Origin: Candidatus Eiseniibacteriota bacterium | GTDB lineage: Bacteria > Eisenbacteria > RBG-16-71-46 > CAZAMP01 | Assembly: GCA_965224245.1 (NCBI GenBank) | Contig: OZ245046.1 | Location: 2,400,001 to 2,464,000 of the forward strand | Direction: 5' to 3' | Length of the DNA: 64,000 nucleotides | Shown: positions 2,402-20,000 of the stretch, piece after piece | Position numbering within the stretch: the stretch's first letter is position 1 | Layout of the letters: each line of letters begins with the position of its first letter | Notes under the pieces: generated by a model | Databases searched by the model: none | Seen by the model: only the letters and a program-made list of their open reading frames with translations | Told to the model about the DNA's origin: nothing | Translations under genes and position numbers: made by a program

Positions 2402-5400
2402 CTAACGGATCAAGGCCAGCTTTCCGACCTCGGAGTCGGCTCTCCCCCCGGTCGACGCGACCCGGTAGACGTACAGGCCGGGCGCCACCGGCGTCCCGGA
2501 CTCGTTCAGGCCATCCCAGCGCACGAGGTTGTCGACGCCACCATAGACGGTGCCGTCCAGGCGGCGGACCTCGATCCCGGCGGCATCGTAGATCGTGATC
2601 GTCACGCGTGAGACGTCCATCGCCGGCCGGTAGTGGAACGACGTGCCGTCCGGACGCGCCGGATTCGGCTGGCAGTATACGTCGGCGAGCCCGCTGGCCG
2701 CATCGGGCACGTCGGACTCGCTGGCCGCCGTGACCGCGTTTCGCGTGGGTCCGCGACGGAACATGCCCCACTCGTCGCCGCGCGGGCGGTACGGCGCATC
2801 CAGGTTCCAGAGCACCGCGCGCGTCCACAGGACCTCGTCGCGCGATCCGCGTCCCACGTCGAGCGCGAAGACGTCGGTGCGAGCGTCCCCGTCGAAGTCG
2901 CCCACCACCGGGACGGTGCCCGAGCCGACCTGGAGCGGCCACCCGCGAAGCACGCGCGCGTGGGCGTCGTCCCCGCGCAACCCCACCACGAGCCCGTCGC
3001 CGAAGACCGGGATCACGTCGAGACGCCCGTCCCCGGTCACGTCGGCCGCGAGCGGCCCCCGATGCGGCGGCGACAGGTCGTAGTACGTGTCCTGCGGGAC
3101 GTCGAACGTCCGCGGCCAGCCGGCGTCGACCACGCCGTTCAGGTTGATCACGAAGGCCGCGCCGCTGGTGCCGATGGCCAGCACCTCGGCGAAGCCGTCC
3201 GAGTCGACGTCGGCGATCGACACCTCGCTCCCGATCGGACCGCCCACGAACACCGGCCACCCCGCGCGCGGCGAGAGGTGTGAGACGTCACCGTCGTGCC
3301 CGAGCTCCCACGCGAACACGGTGCCGTCCTCGGCCACGGCGACCACGTCGGGGGTGTCGTCGCCGTCCAGATCCCCCCACACCGGCGAGCCGAAGCGCCG
3401 ATCGGGCTCGGTGGGCGCGCGCTCGCGCTGGTCGGTGTCGAGGTCCAGATCCACGAGTAGCATGCCGCCCAGGAGTCCCGCCTGCACGACGACCGGGATG
3501 GTGGCTGCGCCGCCCTGCGTGACCGGCGCCCCGGCGATCCGCCCGACCACCGGGGCCCCGGCGACCGGCCCGGCGATGCGGTACTCGCGGCCGGCGGCCG
3601 CATCGAGATCCCAGCGCCACATCGCGCCCTCGGTCGAATCGGCGCCCGCATCGCGGGAGCCCACGATCAGCTCCAGCGCGGCGTCGTCGTCGACGTCGGC
3701 GAGCACACCCTCCACGCGTCCCAGCGAGTCGACGGCGCCGGCGGGTCGCCGGCGCAGCGCGGTGGCGGTCATCTCGAAGACCGAGATGCCGCCGCGCTCG
3801 CCGATCGTCACGATCGACTGGCCGCCGTCCCCCAGCACGTCACCGACGAGCGGGGATCCGGCCGGCGTGTCGCCGATGTCGCGGTCTCCCCCGATCGCGC
3901 GTCCGTCGGTGTCGAGGACGGTCAGGAGCCCGCTCTCGCCCAGCACCACGAACTCGCTCTCGCGGTCGCCGTCGAGATCGGCCGCCAGCGGATGCGCGCC
4001 GGAGATGGGCTGATCCAGCGTGACCGGAAAGCCGTCGGCGAGCGTGGCCGCGGCGCCGTCGGGCTCCACGAACTCGACCCGGAACGACTGCGTCTCCCCG
4101 GGAGGCCCGATGTCGCTGATGAGCACGCGCCCCGGCGCGCCGAACGAGCTCTCGGAGGAGGGGTTCGTCCAGGGTCCGAACTCGGTGGCGGTGCCTGGAC
4201 GGAACGCGTCGTCCGGGGACCCGAACGACAGGATCGTGTAGGCGTCGAACTCCAGATCCTGGACCCCGTCGGCCTCCTCGAGGTCGATGCCGAGGTGATG
4301 CGGGTCGGCGTTGACCAGGTTGTAGTCGAACGCGAACCGCACCACGGAGTCGTCGATGTGCCAGACGTACAGCCCCTCGGACTCGCGGTACGTGGCGGTG
4401 GGGCTCGTCGGCAAGAGGTTCGGGGTGAAGTAGTCGAACTCGGAGCCTGCGAACGTGTCGCCCCAGAAGTTGAACGAGACGTCGTCCTCGCTTCGACGCG
4501 CCCAGTCGAACGTCCGGTTGTCGTTGGGATCGGGTTGTCGGGCCTCGACCAGGAAGTACTCGTCGGCCGAGATCGGGATGCGGACCGCGAGCGTGTCGGT
4601 GGCCGCGGGGCGATCGGTCTCGATCGGGGTCAGCGTGACCGCGCGCCCGCCCGGCGGCGTGTCGGCGATCGTGACCGGATCGAGCCATCCCGCGTAGTAG
4701 CGCGACCACACGCATGGCTCGCCGGGGACGAAGCCGTTGCCGTTCCACGTGCCGGCGGCCATCAGGCAGAACGCCCCGACGCCCTGCGACGGATCCCCAG
4801 GCGTGGTGTCGTACAGATCGGGCCAGCCGATCATCACGTGACCGAGCTCGTGCGTGAACACGCCCATGAGCCCGAACCGCCACCCGTCCTGTACCTCGTT
4901 CTCGGGGAGGAGCGCGGCCCCGCGCACGTAGACGGTGTCGCCCTCGGCGGTCAGATCGTCGGTCGGGATCCCGGGCACTTCGTAGCCGAGCGAGTCGTTC
5001 AGCACGAACGAGAGCAGATCGCCCGGGAAGAACGCGGACCAGATCTGTGACTTGCTGTCCCGCGCCACGTCGGACTCCTGACCGGAGCCCGAGTGCACGA
5101 CCGCGAAGCCGTTGTAGTCACCGAAGTCCACGTCGGCGTCGGCGCCCGCGACGGCGTCCCAGATCAGCTTCGTGCCGCGTTCGGAGAAGAGATCGTCGTC
5201 TCCGTAGTACGCCATCGGGGCGGGAAGCTTGACCACCGCGTCGTGAACCGTGGCCTCCATCACGTGCTGGCCGAACGACACGTCCTCGTAGTACTGGCGC
5301 ACGTGCTCGAGGTGACGATCGAAGTAGGCCACCAGGAGCTCGTCCTCGGGGATCGGGCCCGCGCCCGTCGTGTCGATGGCCAGCGTGTCGAAGGGCACGT

Positions 5401-5713
5401 CGGCGAACTCGGCCAGCAGGAAGAGTACGCGCGAGGTGTCGGACGGCGCGCCGACCCGGTCGGTGTCGTGATCGAAGTAGCCGAGCGCCAGCTCGGGCGC
5501 CGGCTCGCGAAAGACGGGCCAGTCGGTCTTCTGGGGCACCGGCGGCGCCATGCAGAAGATCGGCCCGCCCACCGGCCCGGCGTGGACGGCCGGTCGAGGT
5601 TCGGGCGCGTCGCCGGCGCGCGGAAGAGGTGTGATCCGGTCCGTGGACGTCAACCAGCCCAGCGCCGAGAGCACGGCGAGCGCCGACGTCAGTAACGTGC
5701 GTCGAAGCATCAT
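2402..5713 (-). CDS. Secreted M6 (immune inhibitor A-like) metalloprotease with FG-GAP repeats and C-terminal FlgD-Ig domain
   Basis: HELGH..GWPDLYD, CLMAAGTWN and GIDLEEADG motifs; repeated D.DGDG; tail PNP..ITIYDAAG.EVRRL..WDGLNESG..VAPGLYVY. Confidence 0.85.
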   Translation of the reverse strand: MMLRRTLLTSALAVLSALGWLTSTDRITPLPRAGDAPEPRPAVHAGPVGGPIFCMAPPVPQKTDWPVFREPAPELALGYFDHDTDRVGAPSDTSRVLFLLAEFADVPFDTLAIDTTGAGPIPEDELLVAYFDRHLEHVRQYYEDVSFGQHVMEATVHDAVVKLPAPMAYYGDDDLFSERGTKLIWDAVAGADADVDFGDYNGFAVVHSGSGQESDVARDSKSQIWSAFFPGDLLSFVLNDSLGYEVPGIPTDDLTAEGDTVYVRGAALLPENEVQDGWRFGLMGVFTHELGHVMIGWPDLYDTTPGDPSQGVGAFCLMAAGTWNGNGFVPGEPCVWSRYYAGWLDPVTIADTPPGGRAVTLTPIETDRPAATDTLAVRIPISADEYFLVEARQPDPNDNRTFDWARRSEDDVSFNFWGDTFAGSEFDYFTPNLLPTSPTATYRESEGLYVWHIDDSVVRFAFDYNLVNADPHHLGIDLEEADGVQDLEFDAYTILSFGSPDDAFRPGTATEFGPWTNPSSESSFGAPGRVLISDIGPPGETQSFRVEFVEPDGAAATLADGFPVTLDQPISGAHPLAADLDGDRESEFVVLGESGLLTVLDTDGRAIGGDRDIGDTPAGSPLVGDVLGDGGQSIVTIGERGGISVFEMTATALRRRPAGAVDSLGRVEGVLADVDDDAALELIVGSRDAGADSTEGAMWRWDLDAAAGREYRIAGPVAGAPVVGRIAGAPVTQGGAATIPVVVQAGLLGGMLLVDLDLDTDQRERAPTEPDRRFGSPVWGDLDGDDTPDVVAVAEDGTVFAWELGHDGDVSHLSPRAGWPVFVGGPIGSEVSIADVDSDGFAEVLAIGTSGAAFVINLNGVVDAGWPRTFDVPQDTYYDLSPPHRGPLAADVTGDGRLDVIPVFGDGLVVGLRGDDAHARVLRGWPLQVGSGTVPVVGDFDGDARTDVFALDVGRGSRDEVLWTRAVLWNLDAPYRPRGDEWGMFRRGPTRNAVTAASESDVPDAASGLADVYCQPNPARPDGTSFHYRPAMDVSRVTITIYDAAGIEVRRLDGTVYGGVDNLVRWDGLNESGTPVAPGLYVYRVASTGGRADSEVGKLALIR

Positions 5714-5828
5714 GTTGAGTCCCGCTTCACGAGATGGGCATCGGGGAGCGCCCGGCCGCGGCGCCGGGACACCTTCCCGGTGTCCGGCGCAATCGCAACG
5801 TGAGCAAGCGCTTACCTAGGCCTGGGCG

Positions 5829-5857
5829 AGTCTAGAGAGGCATACACCGGGGGTCAA
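5829..5857 (-). promoter_or_regulatory. sigma70-type promoter for the M6 protease-porV unit
   Basis: TTGACC-N17-TAGACT on the minus strand. Confidence 0.55.
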
Positions 5858-5909
5858 CGTTTTGCTCCGGCGGGACGGGAGTAAATCGGGGGTGGAAGGG
5901 GCGGCCCCG

Positions 5910-7310
5910 TCAGCGACGGGACCGACCACCGGACGAGCGATCGCGCCCCGAGGACTTCGATCGCCCGCTGCGTCCGCGATCCCCGCTCTTGCGATCGTCC
6001 CGCCGCGGGGGCGTGGCCGACTTTCGCGGCTTGTCCCCCCGGGAGTTCCGGGGTCGATCGCCGACGTTTCGTGGACGATCGTCCCGCGACGGCTGCACGT
6101 CTCGACCGGAATCGTCGCGCTTGGGACGTGCTCCGCGATCCCGCTTGCCCCGCCCGGCATCCCGATCACGGTCGTCACGATCGCCGCGGTCCACGTCTCG
6201 TGCGCCGCGATCGCCGCGATCTCCCCGGTCGACGTTCCGGTCGCCCCGATCTCCCCGATCGGGCCGGGTTCCGCGGTCATCCCGGCCACGCGAGTCCAGA
6301 GCGCCGTCGCGATCGCGAACCGGCTTCGTGGTGCCCCGTACGTCGTGCGCGTCGGACACGTGGTCGCCGCGTGTCCACGAGGGATGGTCCTTGCGGTCCT
6401 TCAGATGATCGCGCTCCCTGGGCGACTTGCCTGCGAACGTCCGGATCAGACGATCCGGACGACCGTCCTCCCACCGATCCTTGGACGACCACTTGGTCTT
6501 GTAGGAGCGGTAGCGGTGCGGCGCGTTCGCGCGCTTCCAGTAGTAGAAGCGCGGCTGGCAGCGTGCCGGATAGAGCGCGTCGGTCCACCAGACGTCCACG
6601 CGCACGTCGAACACCCGGCACGCGTCCCGGTACGGGTCGTACCATCCGCCGTAATGACAGTCGTTGCACACGTAGCGCGGATAGTACCGGTGCGTGCGGA
6701 CGCCCCAGTACACGGTCCGGAAGCCCACCCGGTGCGGCGCGCACCCGCGGGGCAGAATCGAGGCCCGGAGCTCGGCGAACGCCAGGTACGGGTCGCCGGT
6801 GACGAACCCGAACTGCACGATGGGGCTGCGAGAGGCGCCGAGGTAGTACGGCCTGGTGCGGTGGCCGTGCGCGTAGAACCAGTCGGGAAAGTACGGGTCC
6901 AGCGGATAGGCGCACGCCAGCGCCTGCACGTACACCATGCCCTCCAGCGGTCCCACCTCGAGAAACGGCGCGTTGACCACGTACGACCGTCCGCCCCGGA
7001 GGTAGTGCGGGTCGTGCGGATGGTACGGGTAGATCAGATGCGCCATGCCGTCCACGTCGACGCCGTAGACGACGACGTACGAGTCGCGATGGGGACGGAC
7101 GGTCAGCTGGACCACGTCACCGGTGTCGTAGGTCGGATCCTCGCCGCCCGCGTCGACCCAGACGTCGACGCCGTACGCGTCGCCGTAGCCGCGGTCGTGA
7201 ACGGCATCCTGATAGCCGATGCCGGCCATCGCCGGCGCGGCGCCCGCCACGAGTGCGAGCGCGGCGGCCAGCGTGCCGGCCGCCCTCGAGAGCGTCGGAG
7301 TGCGCATCAT
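5910..7310 (-). CDS. Exported DUF4384-like protein with Tyr-rich middle and Arg/Asp low-complexity tail
   Basis: Signal peptide AMA; VDVWVD..TYDTGDVVQLTVR...SYVVVYGVDVDG..HLIYP; CNDCH; DRGDRGDR repeats. Confidence 0.7.
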   Translation of the reverse strand: MMRTPTLSRAAGTLAAALALVAGAAPAMAGIGYQDAVHDRGYGDAYGVDVWVDAGGEDPTYDTGDVVQLTVRPHRDSYVVVYGVDVDGMAHLIYPYHPHDPHYLRGGRSYVVNAPFLEVGPLEGMVYVQALACAYPLDPYFPDWFYAHGHRTRPYYLGASRSPIVQFGFVTGDPYLAFAELRASILPRGCAPHRVGFRTVYWGVRTHRYYPRYVCNDCHYGGWYDPYRDACRVFDVRVDVWWTDALYPARCQPRFYYWKRANAPHRYRSYKTKWSSKDRWEDGRPDRLIRTFAGKSPRERDHLKDRKDHPSWTRGDHVSDAHDVRGTTKPVRDRDGALDSRGRDDRGTRPDRGDRGDRNVDRGDRGDRGARDVDRGDRDDRDRDAGRGKRDRGARPKRDDSGRDVQPSRDDRPRNVGDRPRNSRGDKPRKSATPPRRDDRKSGDRGRSGRSKSSGRDRSSGGRSRR

Positions 7311-8128
7311 GATGCACCTCCTCCGAAGTCGCGCAGCGGCCGCTTGTGCGTGGCCCCGCTCTTGCGCAGCTCGGGATTGCCGCGATCGGTCTGGTAGCCC
7401 CAGTCCAGCTCGATGAAGTCCTCGTCCAGATCGACGACGCGGACCTTCGCGTAGTTGTTGTCGCGCGTCCAGACCACGTAGACGTGCCCCACGATCGCCT
7501 CCACGATCCCCGACGGGCTCCAGCCCTCGTCGGGCGCCCAGGTGATCGCGTCGAAGGACGCGTAGCCTGCATCCTGGATGTCGGTCGCGTAGTCGGGAAC
7601 GGCCAGGTAGCCGACACCGTCGATCCAGTCGAAGTAGACGTCGGCGCGCTCGTCGTCCCAGCCGACTCGCTGCTCGCGCGAGAAGTCGAACGCCGAGTCC
7701 TCGGGGTAGTCGCCGTCGGCCTCTTCCAGCTGAAGGCCGAACCCCTCGGGCCGCGGCGTGTCGTAGATGATGCGGTTGTTGAGGTCGCTCTCGTTGCCGG
7801 CGTAGTCGATGGCGGTGACTCCGTAGTAGTACGTGTCTCCGTTGTCGAGGTCGTCGTGCACGAAGTCGGCGTCCTCGGTGAACCCGAGCAGGTCGTACGG
7901 CCCGTGCGGCTCGCGACTCACGTAGACGCGATAGCCGTCCAGGTCGGGCTCCTGGTTCTCGATCCAGTCCAGATAGACGACCCGGTCACCGGTCGTCGAC
8001 GTCACACCGACCGGCGGCAGCGGCGCGCGGCGGTCGGACTCGTGATGGTGGTCGGTACCGGTGTGATTGATCTCGCAGCCGAGCGCGAGCACCGCACCCA
8101 CGAGTGTCAGATGGAGTCGCGTGTTCAT
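7307..8128 (-). CDS. Lipoprotein with fibronectin type III-like domain
   Basis: Lipobox ALGC; VYLDW..N.EPDLDGYRVY...YYYGVTAIDYAGNES; RBS AGGAGG. Confidence 0.75.
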   Translation of the reverse strand: MNTRLHLTLVGAVLALGCEINHTGTDHHHESDRRAPLPPVGVTSTTGDRVVYLDWIENQEPDLDGYRVYVSREPHGPYDLLGFTEDADFVHDDLDNGDTYYYGVTAIDYAGNESDLNNRIIYDTPRPEGFGLQLEEADGDYPEDSAFDFSREQRVGWDDERADVYFDWIDGVGYLAVPDYATDIQDAGYASFDAITWAPDEGWSPSGIVEAIVGHVYVVWTRDNNYAKVRVVDLDEDFIELDWGYQTDRGNPELRKSGATHKRPLRDFGGGAS

Positions 8129-8159
8129 CGGGGTGCCTCCTTTCGGGTTCGAAGAACGA

Positions 8160-8275
8160 AAGGATGCAGGGGCATCGTCGGCCTGCCTCCACCGTTGAAC
8201 GAAACCCTTACGCCATCACCGCCGAGGCGGCGATGGAGGGTGGGTAAGTGTTTCGCGAAATGCCCCTGCATCCTT
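8160..8275 (-). promoter_or_regulatory. Structured 5' leader closed by a perfect 16-bp inverted repeat
   Basis: AAGGATGCAGGGGCAT (8160-8175) / ATGCCCCTGCATCCTT (8260-8275) enclosing two nested stems. Confidence 0.6.
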
Positions 8276-8289
8276 GTGCCCGGGTGCAT

Positions 8290-8305
8290 TGCAGGGGGCA
8301 TGCCA
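8290..8305 (-). promoter_or_regulatory. sigma54 -24/-12 promoter P1
   Basis: TGGCATGCCCCCTGCA (GG-N10-GC), oriented toward the lipoprotein gene. Confidence 0.7.
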
Positions 8306-8564
8306 GTGGGGCGAGAGCGGACTTCTCAGGCTTGCAACTAACTATGTGCCAATCGATTGAACGAAACGGGACTGCTCCGGGGACCGCTCCGGGAGAGGTG
8401 GGTCGAGCCTGGATCCGTGACCGTCGCGCCTCGGTGTCGCACCGCCGCCACAGGCGTGCCTGCAACACACCCACCCGCCGATACGCGAGCCACTACCGTG
8501 GACGACGAGGACGCGGGGCGCGGGCCGCAGGGCGTTCGGGCGAAGGGCGAGGAGCACGGAGGGC

Positions 8565-8817
8565 AAAAAACAAGGGACCCGATCCGCGGCGGCCACAGCC
8601 TGGACATCCCCCATCTCGCTGGTCATAACCGCCTGGATCAGATCCCTCGCAAATCGTGCCGAGGTATGTCGTGTCTGCGCCGAAGAATTCGAACCGGCCG
8701 GCCGCAACGAACATCTGGACGCTCAATCCGTCGCTCGCCGCGTGTAATCGGGGCCTGATCAGCGTTGACCGGCCGGTCCGAAGTCCATCTTCGGAGGTTC
8801 CCAGCTCCACAGACGTT
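8565..8817 (-). ncRNA. Putative sigma54-dependent structured small RNA, ~250 nt
   Basis: Begins at the predicted +1 of promoter P2; two long stems whose mismatches are G-U pairs on the minus strand; ends in U6; no RBS-supported ORF. Confidence 0.55.
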
Positions 8818-8827
8818 CTCTGATCAT

Positions 8828-8843
8828 TGCATCCGGCATGCCA
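8828..8843 (-). promoter_or_regulatory. sigma54 -24/-12 promoter P2
   Basis: TGGCATGCCGGATGCA (GG-N10-GC); shares TGGCATGCC...TGCAATG with P1. Confidence 0.7.
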
Positions 8844-9076
8844 GGTGCGCCGATCGCGCCGAGACACATCGAACACAACGCTAACGCATTCGAAACGGGC
8901 ACGTTACACGTGGGTTTCATTCCGCTGCGAGGGGCTCGATCTCCGGCTCTTCCGGGCACGAATTCGCAAGGAAGTTTCCAGCCACATCTCGACGCCGGCA
9001 ACGTGCGCGTTTGCAGCGTCTTGGGTTGGAAAGATTCTTTAGAGGCGTATCAAGAGACTTGATAGCTCCAGGGGGG

Positions 9077-12000
9077 TCAGTCGATGGCGAACGTGCGGAC
9101 CTTGGCCAGCAGGGTGGGATACGAGATGGCCAGACGCCTCGCCGCGGCGCTCTTGTTCCCACGGCACTCGCGGAGCGCGTCCACGATCATCTGCCGCTCG
9201 AGACGCTGCACGGCCGATCGCATCGAGCCGTTCGTGGCGCCGTTCGCGACGCCGGCCGGCCCGACCAGCTCGGGCGGCAGGTGCGCGACACCGACCGGCT
9301 CTCCCTCGTCGGCCAGGACGAGCATCCGGCGGACAGCCTTCTCCAGCTCGCGTACGTTGCCCGGCCATGCGTAGTCGTGGAGCAGTCGCATCACGTCGGG
9401 CGACAGGCGCGGCACGTCTCGTGACATCTCGGCCGAGAACGTCGCCATGAAGTGGTCCACGAGAGCGTCGATGTCCTGGCGCCGCTCTCGAAGCGGCGGG
9501 ATCACGATGGAGATGTCGTTGAGCCGGTAGTAGAGATCCTCCAGGAACGCGTTCTCCGCGATCAGCGTCTTCAGGTTGGCGTTCGTGGCGGACACGATCC
9601 GCACGTCGACGCGCTTCCAGCGCGTGGCCCCGACCGGTCGGATCTCGTGGTGATCGAGCACGTGCAAGAGCTTGGCCTGCACCGCGCGCGTCGTCTTGTC
9701 CACCTCGTCTAGGAACACGGTCCCGCCTTCGGCCTCTTCGAAGAGCCCGCGCTTCTCGCGTATCGCACCGGTGAACGCGCCCGCCATGTGCCCGAACAGC
9801 TCGCTCTCCAGGAGATGCTCGGGTATCGCGGCGCAGCTGATCGGTACGAACGGGGCCTCTCTTCGCCTGCCCGTATCGTGCACCGCGCGCGCGATCAGGC
9901 CCTTGCCGGTGCCGGTCTCGCCGCGGACGAGCACGCTCGCCGGGCTGTCGGACACCTTGCGTACGGTCTGGAGCAGCGCCTCGAACGCCGGGCTGGCCGA
10001 CACGATCGGCCGCGTGAGGCGGCTCGCGTCGATGCCGCTCTCCAGCCGGGCGCGCTCGGAGAGCATCTGCGTGCGTTCGAGCGCCAGCGCCGAGATCGAC
10101 GCCAGCTCGGCCAGGAGCGCGATCAGCTTCAGATCGGCCTGTCGGTAGGCGCCCACCACGTGCTGCGCGCGGCGGTCCACGTAGAGGAGCCCCCAGATGT
10201 CCTGGGGCAGGCACAGCGGCGCGATCGCCAGGCCGGACACGTCCTCGACGTCCCCAACGTCGGCGTCGCCGGGAGCGCGGATCGCCGGGTACCCCGACGC
10301 CATCGACGCGGCGACCGCCGGCTGGATGCGCCCGAGCAGCTCGCTGGCCTGCGCGGCGGTCGTCCCGATCGCACCCACCACCGTCAGGTCCTCGGTGGTC
10401 GGCCCCTGAGCCAGAAACGCGCGATCGGAGCTGGTGCGGCGAAGCACCATTCGCAGGAGGGCATCGACGGCGCTCTCCGGGCTTTCGGACGTCTTCAGGA
10501 GCCGATGGAGCTCGCGCGTCGGGCTGAGGATGTCCGAGCCCTCGAGCGACGTCCGCGCGCGCTGGTCGAGCCGAGCCTTCAGACGCATCTGCTCCTCGAG
10601 CAGCGGGCTCTCCTCTGAGGCCTCGACGTATCGTGCGGCCGACCGGAGGAGGTTCTCGGCATCGTCGAGGGGACCGGTCCGGATGCGGTCCTCGACCGCC
10701 GCCAGCGCCACCTCGGCGAGGTGTCCGGGGACGTCGAGCGTCTCGAAGATCGCGCGCGCCTCCGTCAGGTGATGCTGGATCTCCGGATGAGCGTCGGTCG
10801 ACTCGCGGGCCACGTCGAGGCACACGCGCGCCATCGACAGGTGCGTGCGGCCGACCTCATACCGGGCGCCGAGCTTGCGGAACGTCTCGAGAACCGCGCC
10901 CAGCATCGCGTGGCCGTCCTCGCAACGTCCCGCGCGGGCCCGGCACAGACCCAGCACGCGCCGGGCGGCGGCCGCCTCGGTCAGGTCTCCGAGGCTCTCG
11001 GCGATCTCGATCGTGCGCTCGGCCGTCTCGGTGGCCGCGTCCAGATCCCCCAGTGCGAAGTGGGCTTCGGCCAGGCGCCGGCCGATCTCCGAGACAAGAT
11101 CGCCCGCCGGAGCCAGCTCTCGAGCGTCGGCGAGCGCTACGAGCAGCCGATCACGCCCGCGCTCGGGCTGGCCGGTGGCCACCTCGAGCTCGCCGCGGAA
11201 CTCTTCGACGAGGATGCGCTCGCGCGTGTAGCCGTTGGCCTCGGCGATCGCGTCCGCCTCCTCCAGGGTGGCGCGGGCGGCGCCGAACCGCCGCGACCGC
11301 ATGTCGAGGACGCCACGCGCGATCAGCGACTTGACCAGTCGACCGCGATGATCGATCTCGCGCGCGATCTGCGTGGCGCGCTCGAGCTGGCGCCGCGCCT
11401 CGGGCCAGTCTCCCAGACGCGAGTGAATGATGCCGAGATTGAGGCAGATCGAGGCCTTTCGCCCGTAGTCGCCCACGTCCTCGAGTATGTCGAGCGCACG
11501 GTGCAGGAACGATAGGGCATCGCGAAGGTGGTTCGACTGCTTCCGATTGAGTCCGAGGTTGTTGTACGCGTGCGCGATACCGCGGCGATCTCCGACCCGC
11601 TCGTACAGACCCAGCGCCAGATCGAACGACTGCTCGGCATCGCCGGTTCGCCCCTGTCGCTCGAGGGCGTGACCGATCGCCAGGTAGAGTCGCGCCTGGA
11701 ATCGCACGACCTCGGAGCTGGTCGTCTCCCGCAGGAGACTGAGCGCCTCGCGTGCCGCGTCGATGGCCGCCTGGTACTGGCCCGACATGGATCCCACGAT
11801 GGCATGGCGGCCGATGATGCGGGCACGGGTGACGTCGTCTGGATGAGGGCCGGCGAAGGCCTCGGCCTCCGCGATCGCGGCGCGCGCCATCCCGAGCTCG
11901 CCCCGGGAGGCGTGGCAATCGACGATGCGCAGCACGACGTCGACGCCGTCGGGGTTCGGGCCCTCGGGGGCGCCCAGCGGCTCGCGAGCGGCCAGGTAGT

Positions 12001-12145
12001 GGCCCAGCGCCTCGCCGTGATTGTCGGCGGACCGGTGGAGATCACCCAGACGCAGGAGGTGATCGAACGTGCTGGGGTCGACGGCACGCTCGCGCGTCGC
12101 TCCCTCGCCCGCCGCTTCGGTTGGGAAACCCCTCCCGACATCCAT
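9077..12145 (-). CDS. sigma54 enhancer-binding protein with long N-terminal TPR array, GAF-like domain, AAA+ and Fis-type HTH
   Basis: TPR repeats (AYNNLG, ICLNLG); GETGTGK, ESELFGH..GAFTGA, VFLDE, WPGNVRELE; GNKSAAARRLAIS; no receiver domain. Confidence 0.9.
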   Translation of the reverse strand: MDVGRGFPTEAAGEGATRERAVDPSTFDHLLRLGDLHRSADNHGEALGHYLAAREPLGAPEGPNPDGVDVVLRIVDCHASRGELGMARAAIAEAEAFAGPHPDDVTRARIIGRHAIVGSMSGQYQAAIDAAREALSLLRETTSSEVVRFQARLYLAIGHALERQGRTGDAEQSFDLALGLYERVGDRRGIAHAYNNLGLNRKQSNHLRDALSFLHRALDILEDVGDYGRKASICLNLGIIHSRLGDWPEARRQLERATQIAREIDHRGRLVKSLIARGVLDMRSRRFGAARATLEEADAIAEANGYTRERILVEEFRGELEVATGQPERGRDRLLVALADARELAPAGDLVSEIGRRLAEAHFALGDLDAATETAERTIEIAESLGDLTEAAAARRVLGLCRARAGRCEDGHAMLGAVLETFRKLGARYEVGRTHLSMARVCLDVARESTDAHPEIQHHLTEARAIFETLDVPGHLAEVALAAVEDRIRTGPLDDAENLLRSAARYVEASEESPLLEEQMRLKARLDQRARTSLEGSDILSPTRELHRLLKTSESPESAVDALLRMVLRRTSSDRAFLAQGPTTEDLTVVGAIGTTAAQASELLGRIQPAVAASMASGYPAIRAPGDADVGDVEDVSGLAIAPLCLPQDIWGLLYVDRRAQHVVGAYRQADLKLIALLAELASISALALERTQMLSERARLESGIDASRLTRPIVSASPAFEALLQTVRKVSDSPASVLVRGETGTGKGLIARAVHDTGRRREAPFVPISCAAIPEHLLESELFGHMAGAFTGAIREKRGLFEEAEGGTVFLDEVDKTTRAVQAKLLHVLDHHEIRPVGATRWKRVDVRIVSATNANLKTLIAENAFLEDLYYRLNDISIVIPPLRERRQDIDALVDHFMATFSAEMSRDVPRLSPDVMRLLHDYAWPGNVRELEKAVRRMLVLADEGEPVGVAHLPPELVGPAGVANGATNGSMRSAVQRLERQMIVDALRECRGNKSAAARRLAISYPTLLAKVRTFAID

Positions 12146-12299
12146 CGTTGCATGGCCCCTTGCTCGATGAGGTTCGCGGTGCCCCCGGCCGGGGCATCGA
12201 TCTCGGGCGGCTCCCCCGCGAACCTCGGGAGCCGCCCCGCACCGGGTCCGACGCTCACCCCGAGTTGAGCGAACGCGCGACCACCGGTGCGGACCTGCG

Positions 12300-12626
12300 T
12301 CAGAGCGTCAGCAAGCTCATCTCCGCCAGCGTGATCACGATCCCCACGATCTCCGGGCACGGATCATCGACCGCCTCGATCGTGTTGCCCTCCGGCATCA
12401 GATCGTAGTCGTCGGGATCCCCGCTGCCGCCGGTGGGCTGCTGGAGTACGCCCGCGCCTGGCGTGACGACCGTGCAGTTGACGTCGTCGCCAGAGTTCGT
12501 GGCAGGGTCGTCGCCGGCGCCGGCCGGGGTGATCCACAGGAACAGCGCGAGGAGTGCGAGGAACACACACGATCGGATCGACGACGGGGTGCGCAGGCAC
12601 GCAGGCAAGTTTCCACGAAGCTCCAC
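12300..12626 (-). CDS. Small exported acidic peptide/protein, 108 aa
   Basis: GGAGG RBS 5 nt before GTG at 12626; signal peptide ending PAGA; acidic core with GSGDPDDYD; hydrophobic C-terminus. Confidence 0.65.
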   Translation of the reverse strand: MELRGNLPACLRTPSSIRSCVFLALLALFLWITPAGAGDDPATNSGDDVNCTVVTPGAGVLQQPTGGSGDPDDYDLMPEGNTIEAVDDPCPEIVGIVITLAEMSLLTL

Positions 12627-12726
12627 TGAGTCCTCCCTGGCGGAATCCGACACGTATGTCGACTGGCTCCCGGATCGCCTTAACCCCGCTGAGGCGGCCG
12701 AGATCGTGGAGTTGGGAACACTGTCG

Positions 12727-12755
12727 ACTTTACCAGCAACGCCGAAATCCGTCAA
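12727..12755 (-). promoter_or_regulatory. sigma70 promoter for the peptide-activator unit
   Basis: TTGACG-N17-TAAAGT with extended TG. Confidence 0.65.
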
Positions 12756-12999
12756 TTCCCGGCGTTTGGGCCGCCCTGTATGATCGTCGGCAGACGGGCG
12801 GGACTTCCAGAGATCCCCGCCGAGTGGGGACCGTGCGCACGCGCGCACGGATGTGGTACACCTCCCGCCGCGAGGATCCGGGGACTCGGGCCGCGGGACA
12901 CCCGCCGGCGCGAGCGTCCAGGACGACCCCTGAACGCACACGGACGCCGAGAGGCGCCAGGACAGGAGCTTCGCCGGCCCGCGCCGGAGAGACCCCACG

Positions 13000-15246
13000 A
13001 TGAGTACGAACATCTACGACCGAGCCCAGGCCGTCGACCGCCGGTTCACGGACTTCGTCGAGCGCTGGAGCGGGTCCCCCCGCCCCCGGCCCGACCTGGA
13101 CGCTCCGGTCCGGTCTCCCTCGCCGCTGACCGGGCGAGAGCTTCTGGAGCTCTTCGAGTCGCAGATCATCTCGCGCCATCTGGACCTGATGTCCCGCATC
13201 CTGCGCGCGCGTGACGCCAGCTTCTACACGATCGGGAGCTCGGGACACGAGGGCAACGCCGCGCTCGGGCGCCTGACGCGTCCGACCGACCCCGCATTCC
13301 TGCACTACCGGAGCGGCGGGTTCATGGCGGAGCGGTCACGGCGCAACCAGCACGCCGACGCCGTGTACGACGTGCTGCTGGCACTCGTGGCGAGCTCGGA
13401 CGATCCGGTCGCCGGCGGGCGCCACAAGGTGTGGGGCAGCGTCGAGCTGTGGGCGATTCCGCAGACGAGCACGATCGCCAGCCATCTGCCAAAGGCGGTG
13501 GGCATGGCCATCGGCGTGCGCCGTGCGCTCAAGATGGGGATCACGCCGCCGGTGCCGCGCGACAGCATCGTCGTGTGCTCGTTCGGCGACGCGAGCGTGA
13601 ACCACTCCACCGCGCTCGGTGCGTTCAGCGCGGCGGCACGCGCGGTGTACCAGCAGATCGCGTGTCCGATCCTGTTCGTGTGCGAGGACAACGGGCTGGG
13701 CATCTCGGTGGCCACGCCGTCCCGGTGGGTCGAGGACGCCTTCGGACCCCGTCCCGGTCTGGAGTACTTCCAGGCCGACGGGCTGGACATCGTGGACATG
13801 CACCGGGTGACCGCCGAGGCCGTATCGGTATGCCGGTCACGGGCCACGCCCGTGTTCCTGCACGTGAGGTGCGTGCGGCTGATGGGCCACGCCGGGAGCG
13901 ACGTCGAGCTGGAGTACCGCTCCCTGGCCGACGTCGAGGCGACCGAGGCGCGCGATCCGATCCTCGCCACCGCACGCATCGTGCTCGAGGCGGGTCTCTG
14001 CCAGCCGTCCGAGGTGACCGCGATGTACGAGCGCATCCGCGCGCGTGTCGAGCTGGCGGCCGAGCGCGCGCTGGCGCGCCCCCGGCTCACCGACCGCCGG
14101 ACGATCATCGCGCCGCTCGCACCGTACACACCCGACGCGGTCGCGGCCGAGGCCACGCGCAAGGCCGCGCCGGAACGGCGCGAGGAGGCGTTCGGCGGCG
14201 AGGAGAAGCTGCCCGAGGCGGCCGGCCCCAGGACGATGGCCATGCAGATCAACAGCGCACTCACGGATCTTCTGGCCAAGCATCCCGAGGCGGTCCTGTT
14301 CGGTGAGGACGTGGCACGAAAGGGTGGGGTCTACCACGTGACCGCCCGGCTTCTCGCGCGCTTCGGGGCTTCGCGCGTGTTCGACACGATCCTCGACGAG
14401 CAGACCATCCTCGGGCTGGCCCAGGGGTTCGGCTACTCCGGGCTGTTGCCGTTTCCGGAGATCCAGTACCTCGCCTACTTTCACAATGCGTGCGATCAGA
14501 TCCGCGGAGAAGCCTGCTCGATGCAGTTCTTCTCGAACGGCCAGTTCCGAAACCCGATGGTGCTCCGGATCGCATCCCTGGGCTACCAGAAGGGGTTCGG
14601 CGGACACTTTCACAACGACAACAGCATCGCGGCGCTGCGCGACATCCCGGGGCTCGTGATCGCGTGTCCGTCCCGGGGCGACGACGCGGCCGCGATGCTG
14701 CGCACCTGTGCGGCCCTGGCCAAGGTCGACGGACGCGTGGTCGCCTTCCTGGAGCCGATCGCCCTCTACCACCGCAAGGATCTCCACGAGCCCCGGGACG
14801 GCGCGTGGCAGTTCCCGTATCCCGCACCCGGCACCGCCGTCCCCCTCGGGTCGAGCCGCGTGTACGACGAGGAGGCGACCGACCTCGTGTTCGTGACCTA
14901 CGGCAACGGGGTGCCGCTCTCGCTTCAGGCCGCACGCACGCTCGGCGAGCGTCACGGCGTGGCCGCCCGCGTCGTGGACCTGCGCTGGCTGAACCCGCTC
15001 GACGGCGGAGTGATCGCCGAGCATGCGCGCGCGTGCGGCAACGTCGTCGTCGTGGACGAGGGACGGCGCACCGGCGGCGTCAGCGAGGCCATCATCACCG
15101 CGATCGTGGAGGCGGGCGTCGAGGGCGTCCGGGTCCGTCGCGTCGTCGGCGAGGACACCTACATCCCGCTGGGACCGGCCGCGAGCCTGGTCCTGCCGTC
15201 GGTGGAGGAGATCGTGGCCGCGGCGCTGGCGCTCGGGGAACGCTGA
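13000..15246 (+). CDS. 2-oxoacid dehydrogenase E1 alpha/beta fusion (TPP-dependent)
   Basis: SGHEG; FGDAS..EDNG TPP motif; LFGEDV..KGGVY; PEIQYLAY; transketolase-like C-terminus. Confidence 0.9.
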   Translation: MSTNIYDRAQAVDRRFTDFVERWSGSPRPRPDLDAPVRSPSPLTGRELLELFESQIISRHLDLMSRILRARDASFYTIGSSGHEGNAALGRLTRPTDPAFLHYRSGGFMAERSRRNQHADAVYDVLLALVASSDDPVAGGRHKVWGSVELWAIPQTSTIASHLPKAVGMAIGVRRALKMGITPPVPRDSIVVCSFGDASVNHSTALGAFSAAARAVYQQIACPILFVCEDNGLGISVATPSRWVEDAFGPRPGLEYFQADGLDIVDMHRVTAEAVSVCRSRATPVFLHVRCVRLMGHAGSDVELEYRSLADVEATEARDPILATARIVLEAGLCQPSEVTAMYERIRARVELAAERALARPRLTDRRTIIAPLAPYTPDAVAAEATRKAAPERREEAFGGEEKLPEAAGPRTMAMQINSALTDLLAKHPEAVLFGEDVARKGGVYHVTARLLARFGASRVFDTILDEQTILGLAQGFGYSGLLPFPEIQYLAYFHNACDQIRGEACSMQFFSNGQFRNPMVLRIASLGYQKGFGGHFHNDNSIAALRDIPGLVIACPSRGDDAAAMLRTCAALAKVDGRVVAFLEPIALYHRKDLHEPRDGAWQFPYPAPGTAVPLGSSRVYDEEATDLVFVTYGNGVPLSLQAARTLGERHGVAARVVDLRWLNPLDGGVIAEHARACGNVVVVDEGRRTGGVSEAIITAIVEAGVEGVRVRRVVGEDTYIPLGPAASLVLPSVEEIVAAALALGER

Positions 15247-18617: not shown

Positions 18618-20000
18618 ATGAACGACCGCGCGCCCCGACCGTACGTGATCCTCGTCGTGGACGACGAGGCGTCGGTGCGTCGATCGGTGATCGGTTTCCT
18701 CGAGGACGAGGGATACCGAACCCTCGACACCGAATCCGGACCCGAGGCCCTGGCCGCGCTCGAGAGCAACCAGGTCGACCTGGCGCTGCTCGACGTGTGG
18801 ATGGAGGGCATGGACGGTCTCACGCTTCTGGACGAGATCCAGCAGCGGCAGCCCGAGCTGCCGGTCATCATGATGAGCGGCCACGGCTCGATCGACCTCG
18901 CCGTTCGCGCGACGCGCCGGGGCGCCTACGACTTTCTCGAGAAGCCGCTCTCCCCCGAGAAGCTCGCGATCACCCTCAACCGCGCGCTCGACCACCAGAC
19001 GACGCGCCGCGCCCAGGCGATCCTCCGCGAGGAGCTCGGCGCCACGCGCGTGCTGATCGGCGAGAGCCCCGCGATGACGAAGCTGAAGGAGGACATCCAC
19101 CGCGTGGGCGGCACGGACGGGCGCGTCCTGATCAGCGGCGAGAACGGAACCGGCAAGGAGCTCGTGGCCCGCGCGATCCACGAGCTCAGCGTTCGCCGCT
19201 CCGGGCCGTTCGTGCGCATGAACTCCGCGGCCATCCCGCGCGATCTCGTCGAGAGCGAGATGTTCGGGCACGAGAAGGGCGCATTCACCGGCGCCACGGC
19301 GCGCAAGCTCGGGAAGTTCGAGATCGCCGATCGCGGCACGCTATTCCTGGACGAGATCGGCGACATGGAGGCGTCGGCCCAGGCGAAGCTCCTGCGCGCG
19401 CTGGAGACCGGCGAGGTCGAGCGCGTGGGCGGCACGCAGCCCGTTCGCTTCGACGTGCGCGTGCTCGCGGCCACGAACAAGGACCTCAAGCGCGAGATCG
19501 CCGAGGGTCGGTTCCGGGAGGACCTGTACTATCGCCTCGCGGTCGTCCCGCTGGTGGTGCCGCCGCTGCGTGAGCGCGGCGACGACGTCGTCGTGCTGGC
19601 GCGACACTTCCTGACGCACTACTGTCAGGAAGCCGGCGGCGTGGTGAAGCGCTTCTCGGAGTCCGCACTCGACTATCTGCGCCAGCACCGCTGGCCCGGC
19701 AACGTGCGCGAGCTCCGGAACCTCATCGAGCGGCTGTCGATCATGGTGGATCACGACGAGGTCGACACACGTGACCTCGAGCCCCTGCTGGACCCGATCG
19801 GGATCGATGCACCCGACGTCGCCCCGGTCACGAACGGAGACGGTACGCTGAAAGAGCGACTGGAAACCGAGGAGCGGCGCATCCTGCGCGACGAGCTCAT
19901 GCGGACGGGCTGGAACGTCTCACAGGCCGCGCGGCAGCTGGGCATCGATCGCGCGAGCCTGCACCGCAAGATCAAGCGGTTCGGACTCTCCAAGCCATGA
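18618..20000 (+). CDS. sigma54-dependent response regulator, NtrX/NtrC-like
   Basis: Receiver VVDDE..LLDVWM; GENGTGKE; GAFTGA; HTH. Confidence 0.92.
   Translation: MNDRAPRPYVILVVDDEASVRRSVIGFLEDEGYRTLDTESGPEALAALESNQVDLALLDVWMEGMDGLTLLDEIQQRQPELPVIMMSGHGSIDLAVRATRRGAYDFLEKPLSPEKLAITLNRALDHQTTRRAQAILREELGATRVLIGESPAMTKLKEDIHRVGGTDGRVLISGENGTGKELVARAIHELSVRRSGPFVRMNSAAIPRDLVESEMFGHEKGAFTGATARKLGKFEIADRGTLFLDEIGDMEASAQAKLLRALETGEVERVGGTQPVRFDVRVLAATNKDLKREIAEGRFREDLYYRLAVVPLVVPPLRERGDDVVVLARHFLTHYCQEAGGVVKRFSESALDYLRQHRWPGNVRELRNLIERLSIMVDHDEVDTRDLEPLLDPIGIDAPDVAPVTNGDGTLKERLETEERRILRDELMRTGWNVSQAARQLGIDRASLHRKIKRFGLSKP

Follow-up and report, generated by a model that had tools for sequence, protein, structure and literature searches.

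To what does a sigma54 activator respond when its N-terminus carries a long solenoid of tetratricopeptide repeats (TPR) and no receiver domain, and why does the gene of a small exported protein stand directly before it? The question is raised by a locus of Candidatus Eiseniibacteriota bacterium within a stretch of 64,000 nucleotides (GenBank assembly GCA_965224245.1, contig OZ245046.1, positions 2,400,001 to 2,464,000 of the forward strand), which we call the window. A preliminary description of positions 5910-12755 had read there a peptide/TPR/sigma54/small RNA (sRNA) circuit, uniting the logic of the RRNPP peptide receptors with that of sigma54 activators encoded beside their own sRNA. The parts it had described are all present, in place to within a few bases, and form one cassette on the minus strand: a sigma70-like promoter, a small open reading frame (ORF), the activator gene, a structured RNA behind sigma54 promoter P2, and an envelope operon behind a second sigma54 promoter, P1 (Table 1). 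The answer towards which we lean, with modest confidence, is that the TPR channel has its cognate partner in the small protein, or in a fragment of it, and that this partner gates the activator; the activator would bind a TATCAA palindrome and fire P2, the envelope operon of P1 belonging to the same response.

The activator itself is readily recognized. Pfam finds TPR_12 and other TPR models, Sigma54_activat (PF00158, 1.1e-62, profile positions 1-167 of 168), AAA_lid_14 and HTH_8 (1.2e-9), and the translation contains an intact GAFTGA as well as the Walker A motif GETGTGK, so that, judged by its domains and motifs, the protein is a bona fide bacterial enhancer-binding protein. Neither Pfam nor NCBIfam detects a receiver domain in its residues 1-700. 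In the window's protein, the GAF domain named in the preliminary description scores 18.8 bits with PF01590 and so misses the cut-off of 22.4; GAF or GAF_2 is nevertheless recognized in 6 of 15 orthologues (best 1e-9), and the AlphaFold model of residues 1-690 (mean pLDDT 88) folds an alpha/beta domain at residues 556-690, behind a continuous solenoid of helix pairs at residues 24-536; by predicted fold and orthology, this alpha/beta domain is a GAF domain. For the TPR part, TPR_MalT is matched in 13 of the 15 orthologues, and the best fold matches in the PDB are LGN/Pins (several solved with peptide ligands) and APC5, besides TSK and the TPRs of SPY/OGT, with 9-26% identity among the matches listed. 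LGN/Pins and APC5 are eukaryotic scaffolds and MalT-type proteins are STAND regulators; the likeness is one of fold only and is silent on the ligand.

This activator is a constant possession of its phylum. Its first 700 residues have a full-length counterpart in 59 of 61 related genomes, and a profile of the N-terminal part, built from 15 orthologues, finds a match in 205 of the 206 genomes of the phylum set and in all 121 of those that are of high quality; all of these genomes fall in one class, and the tallies over 206 genomes and 61 relatives include the unpublished genome G053, one count each, on which nothing else that we state depends. A homologue search with the TPR part returned 6 close activators and otherwise generic TPR proteins, two of the six bearing automatic JGI names that speak of GAF, ATPase, Fis domain and TPR; a search for related loci with the single protein returned three unrelated TPR proteins. 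In a profile search of 1.84 billion representatives, a library that carries neither names nor context, 73 of the best 150 matched without interruption, 59 of them with lengths of 944-1059 aa.

The small protein was harder to follow. No Pfam or NCBIfam family matches its 108 residues, which as a tblastn query gave no hit in either the genome or the relatives' loci. Weak Atlas look-alikes of it (score 0.87) hint at Candidatus Eiseniibacteriota, though as a lead only. Counterparts were located by position and features, as a same-strand ORF with an N-terminal hydrophobic stretch, in 38 of the 40 relatives' loci compared (41 with the window); of these 38, that of L082 seems spurious on inspection by eye, and one locus yielded none. 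The counterparts measure roughly 90-130 aa and end 12-133 nt upstream of the activator gene, as against about 154-155 nt here, so the length of the intervening spacer is not conserved. The window's product has a basic and then hydrophobic N-terminus, the sequence GSGDPDDY and a hydrophobic C-terminus, and an alignment of 12 small proteins leaves only five invariant columns, namely the start Met and G-D-P-D. Compared with 1710 control frames (stop-to-stop, 90-130 aa), both features are strongly enriched: 31 of 39 orthologous small ORFs and 18 of 19 paralogous ones have the motif [AGSN][DE]P[DN] beyond residue 25 (38 of the control frames), and at least 55% of the last 22 residues are apolar in 35 of 39 and 18 of 19, respectively (354 of the control frames). 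Between close relatives the differences number, for example, 5, 6 and 14, or 32, 26 and 58, at codon positions 1, 2 and 3; since they fall mostly on third positions, the small ORF is translated and fast-evolving. It is probably co-transcribed with the activator gene from the sigma70-like promoter, sites of this kind occurring twice in 11.7 kb where shuffled sequences lead one to expect 0.6.

Duplicated activators speak most clearly on the meaning of this neighbourhood. The 6.9-Mb genome has ~35 full sigma54 activators; among its 37 ORFs with a sigma54 AAA+ domain, 5 have a TPR-like N-terminus, and a small ORF passes our filter at 3 of these 5 compared with 1 of the 32 others. The lone non-TPR case is an ORF with a polar tail and without the acidic motif, and a fourth TPR-type activator has, by eye, a signal-peptide ORF with SDGEPWDDPEE overlapping the activator start; counting the paralogues alone, a small ORF is present at 2, arguably 3, of 4. 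The paralogous TPR activators of relatives, 20 loci in two groups (~1010-1034 aa and ~803-865 aa), are preceded in 19 cases by an ORF of 100-117 aa of the same build, with signal peptide, a middle rich in Gly, Ser, Asp and Pro, (A/G)DP(D/N), and a basic-ended apolar helix. Because the pairing is kept in the paralogues while the genes downstream of them differ, the small ORF tracks the TPR-bearing activator through gene duplication. Conservation of the linkage, on which the preliminary description had staked its proposal, thus holds in 38 of 40 orthologous and 19 of 20 paralogous loci, and this persistence through duplication is the strongest argument that the small protein and the activator work together.

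A second chain of the same kind exists. The largest family of loci (L098, L099, L100, L102) encodes a ~805-aa TPR activator with its own small signal-peptide ORF, followed by inverted repeats of the GTAACA/GTGACA type and, 311-415 nt past the stop codon, by a sigma54 promoter. Beyond this promoter, more than 300 nt of non-coding sequence are conserved; blocks such as CGGAUACGGGG and GGGCUCGUACCC are shared among the loci, Rfam has no match for the stretch, and a cluster of 4-5 tRNA genes comes next (for example L100, ~3860 to 5320). A small protein, a TPR activator and a sigma54 RNA thus form a chain that is not confined to a single case. The paralogues in the present genome have no sigma54 promoter within 700-900 nt downstream.

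On the output side, the wiring of the activator to a sigma54-driven RNA, as first proposed, gains support from a palindrome upstream of P2 and from the conservation of P2 and its RNA. Between the activator's stop codon and the lipoprotein gene, 949 nt hold the two sigma54 promoters. The pattern TGGCAY-N5-NTGCW has only 39 matches on both strands of the entire 6.9-Mb genome, and P2 and P1 are just 538 bp apart. The relaxed palindrome T[AG]T[CA]AA-N5-TT[GT]A[TC]A matches at one place in the genome, and this is the site directly behind the activator gene. With at least 9 of 12 matching positions, the palindrome occurs within 265 nt past the activator stop codon in 33 of 41 loci, often in two copies ~65 bp apart, and its density in this zone is 4.5 per kb compared with 0.054 per kb in the rest of the loci (84-fold). 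A variant with a 6-nt spacer was also scanned for and found next to nothing; the spacer is 5 nt. Downstream GG-N10-GC promoters, which the preliminary description had suggested looking for in relatives, recur there, P2 by pattern in 30 of 40, at 170-361 nt past the activator stop codon, and a promoter at the place of P1, 46-208 nt upstream of the lipoprotein gene, in 25 of the 35 loci with a lipoprotein homologue (window included). RpoN is encoded in the genome (Sigma54_DBD, 220 bits in a 502-aa frame). GG-N10-GC promoters nearby and a candidate upstream enhancer are thus found together, as would be expected around the gene of an enhancer-binding protein.

The RNA predicted to start at P2 opens with stem-loop 1 (SL1), which is present in 35 of 40 relatives, six of these having a degenerate -12 element. 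Stem-loop 2 (SL2) is a long stem whose sequence is wholly different between families with the pairing retained in single-sequence folds, and the exact 16-mer at the tip of stem-loop 3 (SL3) has a single occurrence in this genome. One family has a shorter RNA of ~125 nt, in which SL2, following SL1, doubles as terminator. No conserved reading frame runs through the transcript, and the SL3 tip is not coding, because chance ORFs of different loci read it in different frames. Rfam 15 gives no match at E <= 1 in window positions 5500-13500, and on seven relatives' loci only tRNAs and one chance miRNA hit. Of the sRNA originally proposed, a predicted structured, non-coding RNA behind a sigma54 promoter stands; a role in trans is not supported, as the ends of the RNA flank a coding gene in some lineages.

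The nearest known parallels are LuxO-Qrr, CbrB-CrcZ and GlrR-GlmY, in which the gene of a sigma54 activator, a phosphorylated response regulator, lies beside a sigma54-dependent sRNA gene. As in those systems, an activator gene here adjoins the sigma54 promoter of a structured, terminator-ended RNA, and the enhancer would be placed as in them, 100-200 bp upstream; the palindrome, moreover, is apparently the single strong site that the genome offers the activator. Unlike them, the present activator has TPR and GAF in place of a receiver, the P2 RNA has no Rfam family, and its ends enclose a coding gene in some lineages. We are dealing with a variant of such activator/sigma54-sRNA modules whose input is probably new.

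Table 1. Features of the cassette and its surroundings, in window coordinates
Feature	Position	Strand	Remarks
Sigma70-like promoter	12727..12755	-	TTGACG-17-TAAAGT, extended TG, 9/12 matches
Small exported-protein gene, 108 aa	12300..12626	-	signal-peptide-like N-terminus, acidic GDPD motif, apolar C-terminal helix
Structured spacer, small ORF to activator gene	12146..12299	-	154 nt, -90.4 kcal/mol, z = -2.95
Sigma54 activator, 1022 aa	9077..12145	-	TPR-GAF-AAA+(GAFTGA)-HTH, no receiver
TPR solenoid, residues 24-536	10538-12076	-	activator
GAF-like domain, residues 556-690	10076-10480	-	activator
AAA+ with GAFTGA, residues 714-880	9506-10006	-	activator
HTH_8, residues 981-1016	9098-9205	-	activator
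Palindrome TATCAAGAGACTTGATA, likely enhancer (upstream activating sequence)	9048..9064		TATCAA-N5-TTGATA, ~205 nt upstream of P2 motif
Sigma54 promoter P2 TGGCATGCCGGATGCA	8827..8842	-	pattern match
Predicted P2 transcript, ~253 nt	8565..8817	-	SL1-SL2-SL3-U6; -121 kcal/mol, z = -3.56
SL1 GGAGCUGGGAACCUCC	8793-8808	-	~13 nt past -12 element; GGAGG-GGGG(G)A-CCUCC almost invariant
SL3 tip UGGGGGAUGUCCAGGCUG	8596-8613	-	long hairpin with varying stems, tip CAGACC-N5-UGGGGGAUGUCCAGGCUG, then U-run
U6 end of P2 transcript	8565-8570	-	T6
TTGGCACATAGTTAGTTGCA, sigma54-promoter-like	8331..8352	-	spacing GG-N13-GC, not GG-N10-GC; between SL3 and P1
Sigma54 promoter P1 TGGCATGCCCCCTGCA	8289..8304	-	pattern match
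Structured 5' leader of lipoprotein operon	8129..8279	-	~150 nt, z = -5.23
Lipoprotein, 273 aa	7307..8128	-	lipobox LALGC, FN3 domain, second beta-sandwich
DUF4384 protein, 466 aa	5910..7310	-	signal peptide; 30.4 bits against cut-off 27
Second sigma70-like match	5829..5857	-	TTGACC-17-TAGACT, just upstream of M6 protease gene
M6-type metalloprotease, 1103 aa	2402..5713	-	HELGH intact, FG-GAP repeats, FlgD_ig / type IX secretion system (T9SS)-type C-terminal domain

Taken together, these elements suggest the following course of events. By means of its signal peptide, the small product would enter the Sec pathway. The activator, in the cytoplasm, would offer a superhelix of 13 TPRs of the peptide-binding LGN/APC5 type, joined to a GAF domain where other sigma54 activators have their receiver, and the small protein or a fragment of it would be held in the TPR channel as ligand or partner. 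Such binding might relieve, or impose, the usual N-terminal control over assembly of the AAA+ ring; the active ring, seated on TATCAA-N5-TTGATA just downstream of its own gene, would then open P2 and yield the structured RNA of ~250 nt. P1 and the envelope operon, lying in the same conserved cassette, would probably be co-regulated, either directly or through the RNA.

A number of observations weigh against this reading. With respect to the RNA, P2 or SL1 was not found in 5 of the 40 loci, and the SL3 tip motif occurs within the interval between activator and lipoprotein genes in only about 25 of 41. When SL3 was aligned with MAFFT, RNAalifold predicted 7 pairs and saw no compensatory change; the 3' arms were misaligned, and because of this misalignment the statement that the stems vary yet pair rests on single-sequence folds; that the P2 transcript is a structured RNA is accordingly suggested by single folds and the pattern of conservation, no formal covariation test having been passed. 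The RNA may also be the untranslated regions (UTRs) left behind by gene loss, since eight loci flank an ATPase gene with the same RNA ends. With respect to P1, no TATCAA palindrome lies near it; a CACAC-rich element recurs in relatives instead and may be the site of another regulator, and P1 may for both reasons answer to another of the ~35 activators. Direct control of P1 by this activator, as originally envisaged, is to that extent weakened, and the activator would be linked to P1 through the conserved neighbourhood. With respect to the input, the signal peptides of the small ORFs were judged by eye and with a hydrophobicity filter, and the GAF domain could be the true sensor, of a small molecule. 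A complex prediction of TPR residues 1-560 with residues 38-108 of the small protein scored 0.10 and 0.22 against a mark of 0.32, a result that speaks neither for the supposed contact nor against it. Finally, export would separate the small protein from a receptor that stays in the cytoplasm, so that it would need a route of return.

This last difficulty is avoided if the small protein never has to be re-imported. It might serve as a sentinel of the envelope or of secretion that reaches the TPR from the inside, either as unexported precursor accumulating when export or the envelope fails, or through its C-terminal helix, which intramembrane proteolysis would set free once the protein had been cut in the periplasm close to the acidic motif; such a system would control an envelope and protease regulon. 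An apolar C-terminal helix with a basic end (35 of 39 orthologous, 18 of 19 paralogous ORFs) fits a membrane anchor with its tail inside, the products of the target operon (lipoprotein, DUF4384 protein and T9SS-type M6 protease) are all envelope or secreted proteins, and a motif identical in all paralogues is what one expects of a site of processing or recognition. The compartment problem peculiar to a diderm does not arise. Nevertheless, membrane insertion and cleavage are hypothetical, the tail would expose only 1-5 residues to the cytoplasm before cleavage, and a CPBP protease is encoded in the locus in one family only, so that we regard the monitor, with either of its routes, as possible but short of probable.

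The output may likewise be read in another manner. In eight of the first 20 loci, from two families (L033-L036, L039, L041-L043), SL1-SL2 is followed by an ORF of 482-540 aa with a winged-helix (PF22977) and an AAA (PF00004) domain, and in the seven of them whose contig is long enough SL3 and the terminator come after it; in one of the two families a gene for a CPBP/Rce1-like membrane protease, which in NCBIfam weakly resembles processing proteases of the MroQ and Mrt type, then precedes P1. SL1-SL2 could on this evidence be the leader, and SL3 the 3' UTR and terminator, of a winged-helix/AAA ATPase gene lost in the present lineage, or the RNA could act in cis, on the adjacent P1 transcript only. 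Yet the motifs and folds of SL1, SL2 and SL3 are kept in many lineages without the ORF, one family retains the ~125-nt RNA with its own terminator, and the P1 leaders have no complementary motif in common. As lineages vary in what stands between shared ends, the ends are older than, or independent of, what lies between them, and a cis-acting element or remnant is an explanation that we can only tentatively entertain.

It is also conceivable that the small protein regulates nothing and is either an envelope protein transcribed together with the activator or itself part of the output, and that the activator senses a small molecule or another protein by its GAF domain or its TPR. GAF is the sensing module in activators of the NorR, NifA and FhlA type. 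Like them, our activator has GAF directly before an AAA+ domain with intact GAFTGA, then HTH_8, and its NCBIfam alignments to NorR and FhlA begin inside the GAF region. In contrast to them, it carries ~530 residues of TPR solenoid before the GAF domain and is constantly paired with the gene of a small exported protein. The small ORF accompanies TPR-type activators through at least three paralogue groups with differing downstream genes and is almost never found at other activators (1 of 32 non-TPR cases). Such a distribution would be difficult to understand if the small ORF had no functional tie to the TPR-bearing protein itself, and we consider a bystander role unlikely.

A different matter is quorum sensing after the fashion of RRNPP, in which the small protein would be exported, cut by extracellular or membrane proteases (perhaps M6 or CPBP), re-imported through an oligopeptide permease (Opp) and bound by the TPR at high cell density. 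The resemblance to the Bacillota systems (Rap, NprR, PlcR, PrgX, Rgg, AimR) lies in the gene logic: the gene of a cytoplasmic TPR protein adjoins a small Sec-signal gene, the pairs are multiplied as paralogues, as RRNPP pairs are, the genome encodes four SBP_bac_5 (Opp-type) binding proteins, the cassette includes a secreted M6 protease, and one family has within it the CPBP gene with its faint likeness to MroQ/Mrt-type processing proteases. According to PMC10075063, RRNPP propeptides carry a Sec signal and measure 10-100 aa, or 21-50 aa in the validated systems; receptors have 250-500 aa with TPR at the C-terminus, and the two genes are adjacent at -50 to 191 bp. Measured against these figures, the adjacency is present, with gaps of about 154-155 nt here and 12-133 nt in relatives, and so are the paralogous pairs; the precursor, its signal judged as stated above, has 108 aa here and roughly 90-130 aa in relatives, longer than in the validated systems, and the receptor departs in size (1022 aa), in its N-terminal TPR and in its sigma54 AAA+ output. 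No RRNPP receptor appears among the Foldseek PDB matches listed (to rank 50), a weak argument as a long TPR finds many TPRs. The host phylum is diderm, and a peptide would need passage through the outer membrane too. Furthermore, all three paralogue groups, and the phylum as a whole, share one and the same [AG]DP[DN], which therefore cannot alone give private signals and better fits a site of processing or docking common to all; partner specificity, if any, would sit in the variable parts of the small protein. The locus is thus not a member of RRNPP, its resemblance being one of gene logic only; RRNPP-like signalling between cells strikes us as distinctly improbable.

That the P2 RNA is a sponge for CsrA/RsmA, like CsrB and RsmZ, is very improbable indeed, for although CsrA sites carry GGA in a hairpin loop, the two conserved loops (GGGGGA and GGGGGAUGU) resemble such sites and CsrA is encoded in this genome, each RNA has only two GGA-bearing loops and PF02599 detects CsrA in no more than 43 of 61 relatives, the 18 without a match including all 8 and all 5 genomes of two families that keep P2 and SL1, among them genomes of 1-4 contigs and 90-98% completeness. 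As an observation in its own right, G005, G012, G016 and G032 each have one csrA gene, placed at a distance of 15-25 kb from that of the activator and on the same contig; in the window's genome, csrA (C1:1318139) has two strict sigma54 promoter matches in its vicinity (C1:1316921 and C1:1323111).

Returning to the small protein as cognate partner of the TPR-GAF activator, we searched titles, abstracts and full texts, subscription journals being largely outside this scope, and found no description of a TPR-bearing sigma54 activator system of such kind, nor anything on sigma54 in this phylum, or on RRNPP-like systems in Gram-negative bacteria, that describes such a locus. The arrangement, recurring as it does throughout an uncultured phylum, points to an undescribed signalling module. 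In its widest form, namely that this diderm phylum uses an unrecognised class of signalling pair, with a cytoplasmic TPR-GAF sigma54 activator reading a small exported protein or its fragment through at least three paralogous channels per genome, at least two of which feed new structured RNA families, the proposal is speculative, and we put it forward tentatively. The usual switches of sigma54 activators are phosphorylation, small ligands and partner proteins such as PspA, and a TPR input coupled to its own small exported protein would extend this list by a new mode of control. If the ligand did travel between cells, this would amount to an independently arisen, RRNPP-like peptide quorum sensing in bacteria of Gram-negative type, wired to sigma54. 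Peptide or protein signalling would become testable in a phylum known from metagenomes only, for which the cassette offers at least one new candidate structured RNA family, whose promoter, enhancer and terminator are clear, a simple sequence as candidate site of activator binding, and [AG]DP[DN] as a short candidate recognition motif.

Expression of the locus is weakly hinted at by three contigs from one sediment metatranscriptome study (run X1), apparently from a near relative of the organism. One of 196 nt aligns to 8608-8802, inside the predicted RNA (6 differences, 1 gap), one of 165 nt to 8046-8210, comprising the P1 leader and the start of the lipoprotein gene (3 differences), and one of 177 nt to 7408-7584 (17 differences). 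Such contigs give neither ends nor strand, RNA libraries may hold DNA, and the gaps between them along the locus are not evidence of silence.

As for the envelope operon, the order activator, lipoprotein, DUF4384 protein, M6 protease is kept in most of the first 20 relatives' loci, where a lipoprotein homologue was found downstream of the activator in 15, DUF4384 in 12 and the M6 protease in 12, some of these loci stopping at a contig end. All 35 lipoprotein homologues listed have a lipobox. Pfam finds no fn3 in the window's lipoprotein, though its model (pLDDT 85.5) bears out the FN3 domain of the preliminary description and adds a second beta-sandwich. The P1 leader is shared with the closest relative only; other leaders measure ~30-180 nt and have no common motif. 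A pairing of the RNA loops with the P1 leader was considered and set aside: there is an 8-bp match in the window, but no such motif is common to the P1 leaders. The CACAC-rich element, recognized by eye ~150 nt upstream of P1 (window ~8400-8470), is of the type GTGTGGCG...CGCACACC or of repeated GTCACAC and is partly palindromic. Because of the second sigma70-like match directly upstream of its gene, the M6 protease may also be transcribed alone.

Beyond the cassette, further sigma54 activators are encoded nearby, one at window positions 19053-19553 (plus strand) and two 13-21 kb before the window, in C1:2379017-2387869 of the genome, where there is a strict sigma54 promoter match at C1:2387869. 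Within the cassette, the tail of the DUF4384 protein (~170 aa; window 5910-6500, minus strand) is rich in Arg, Asp and Gly, with RDRG-like repeats.

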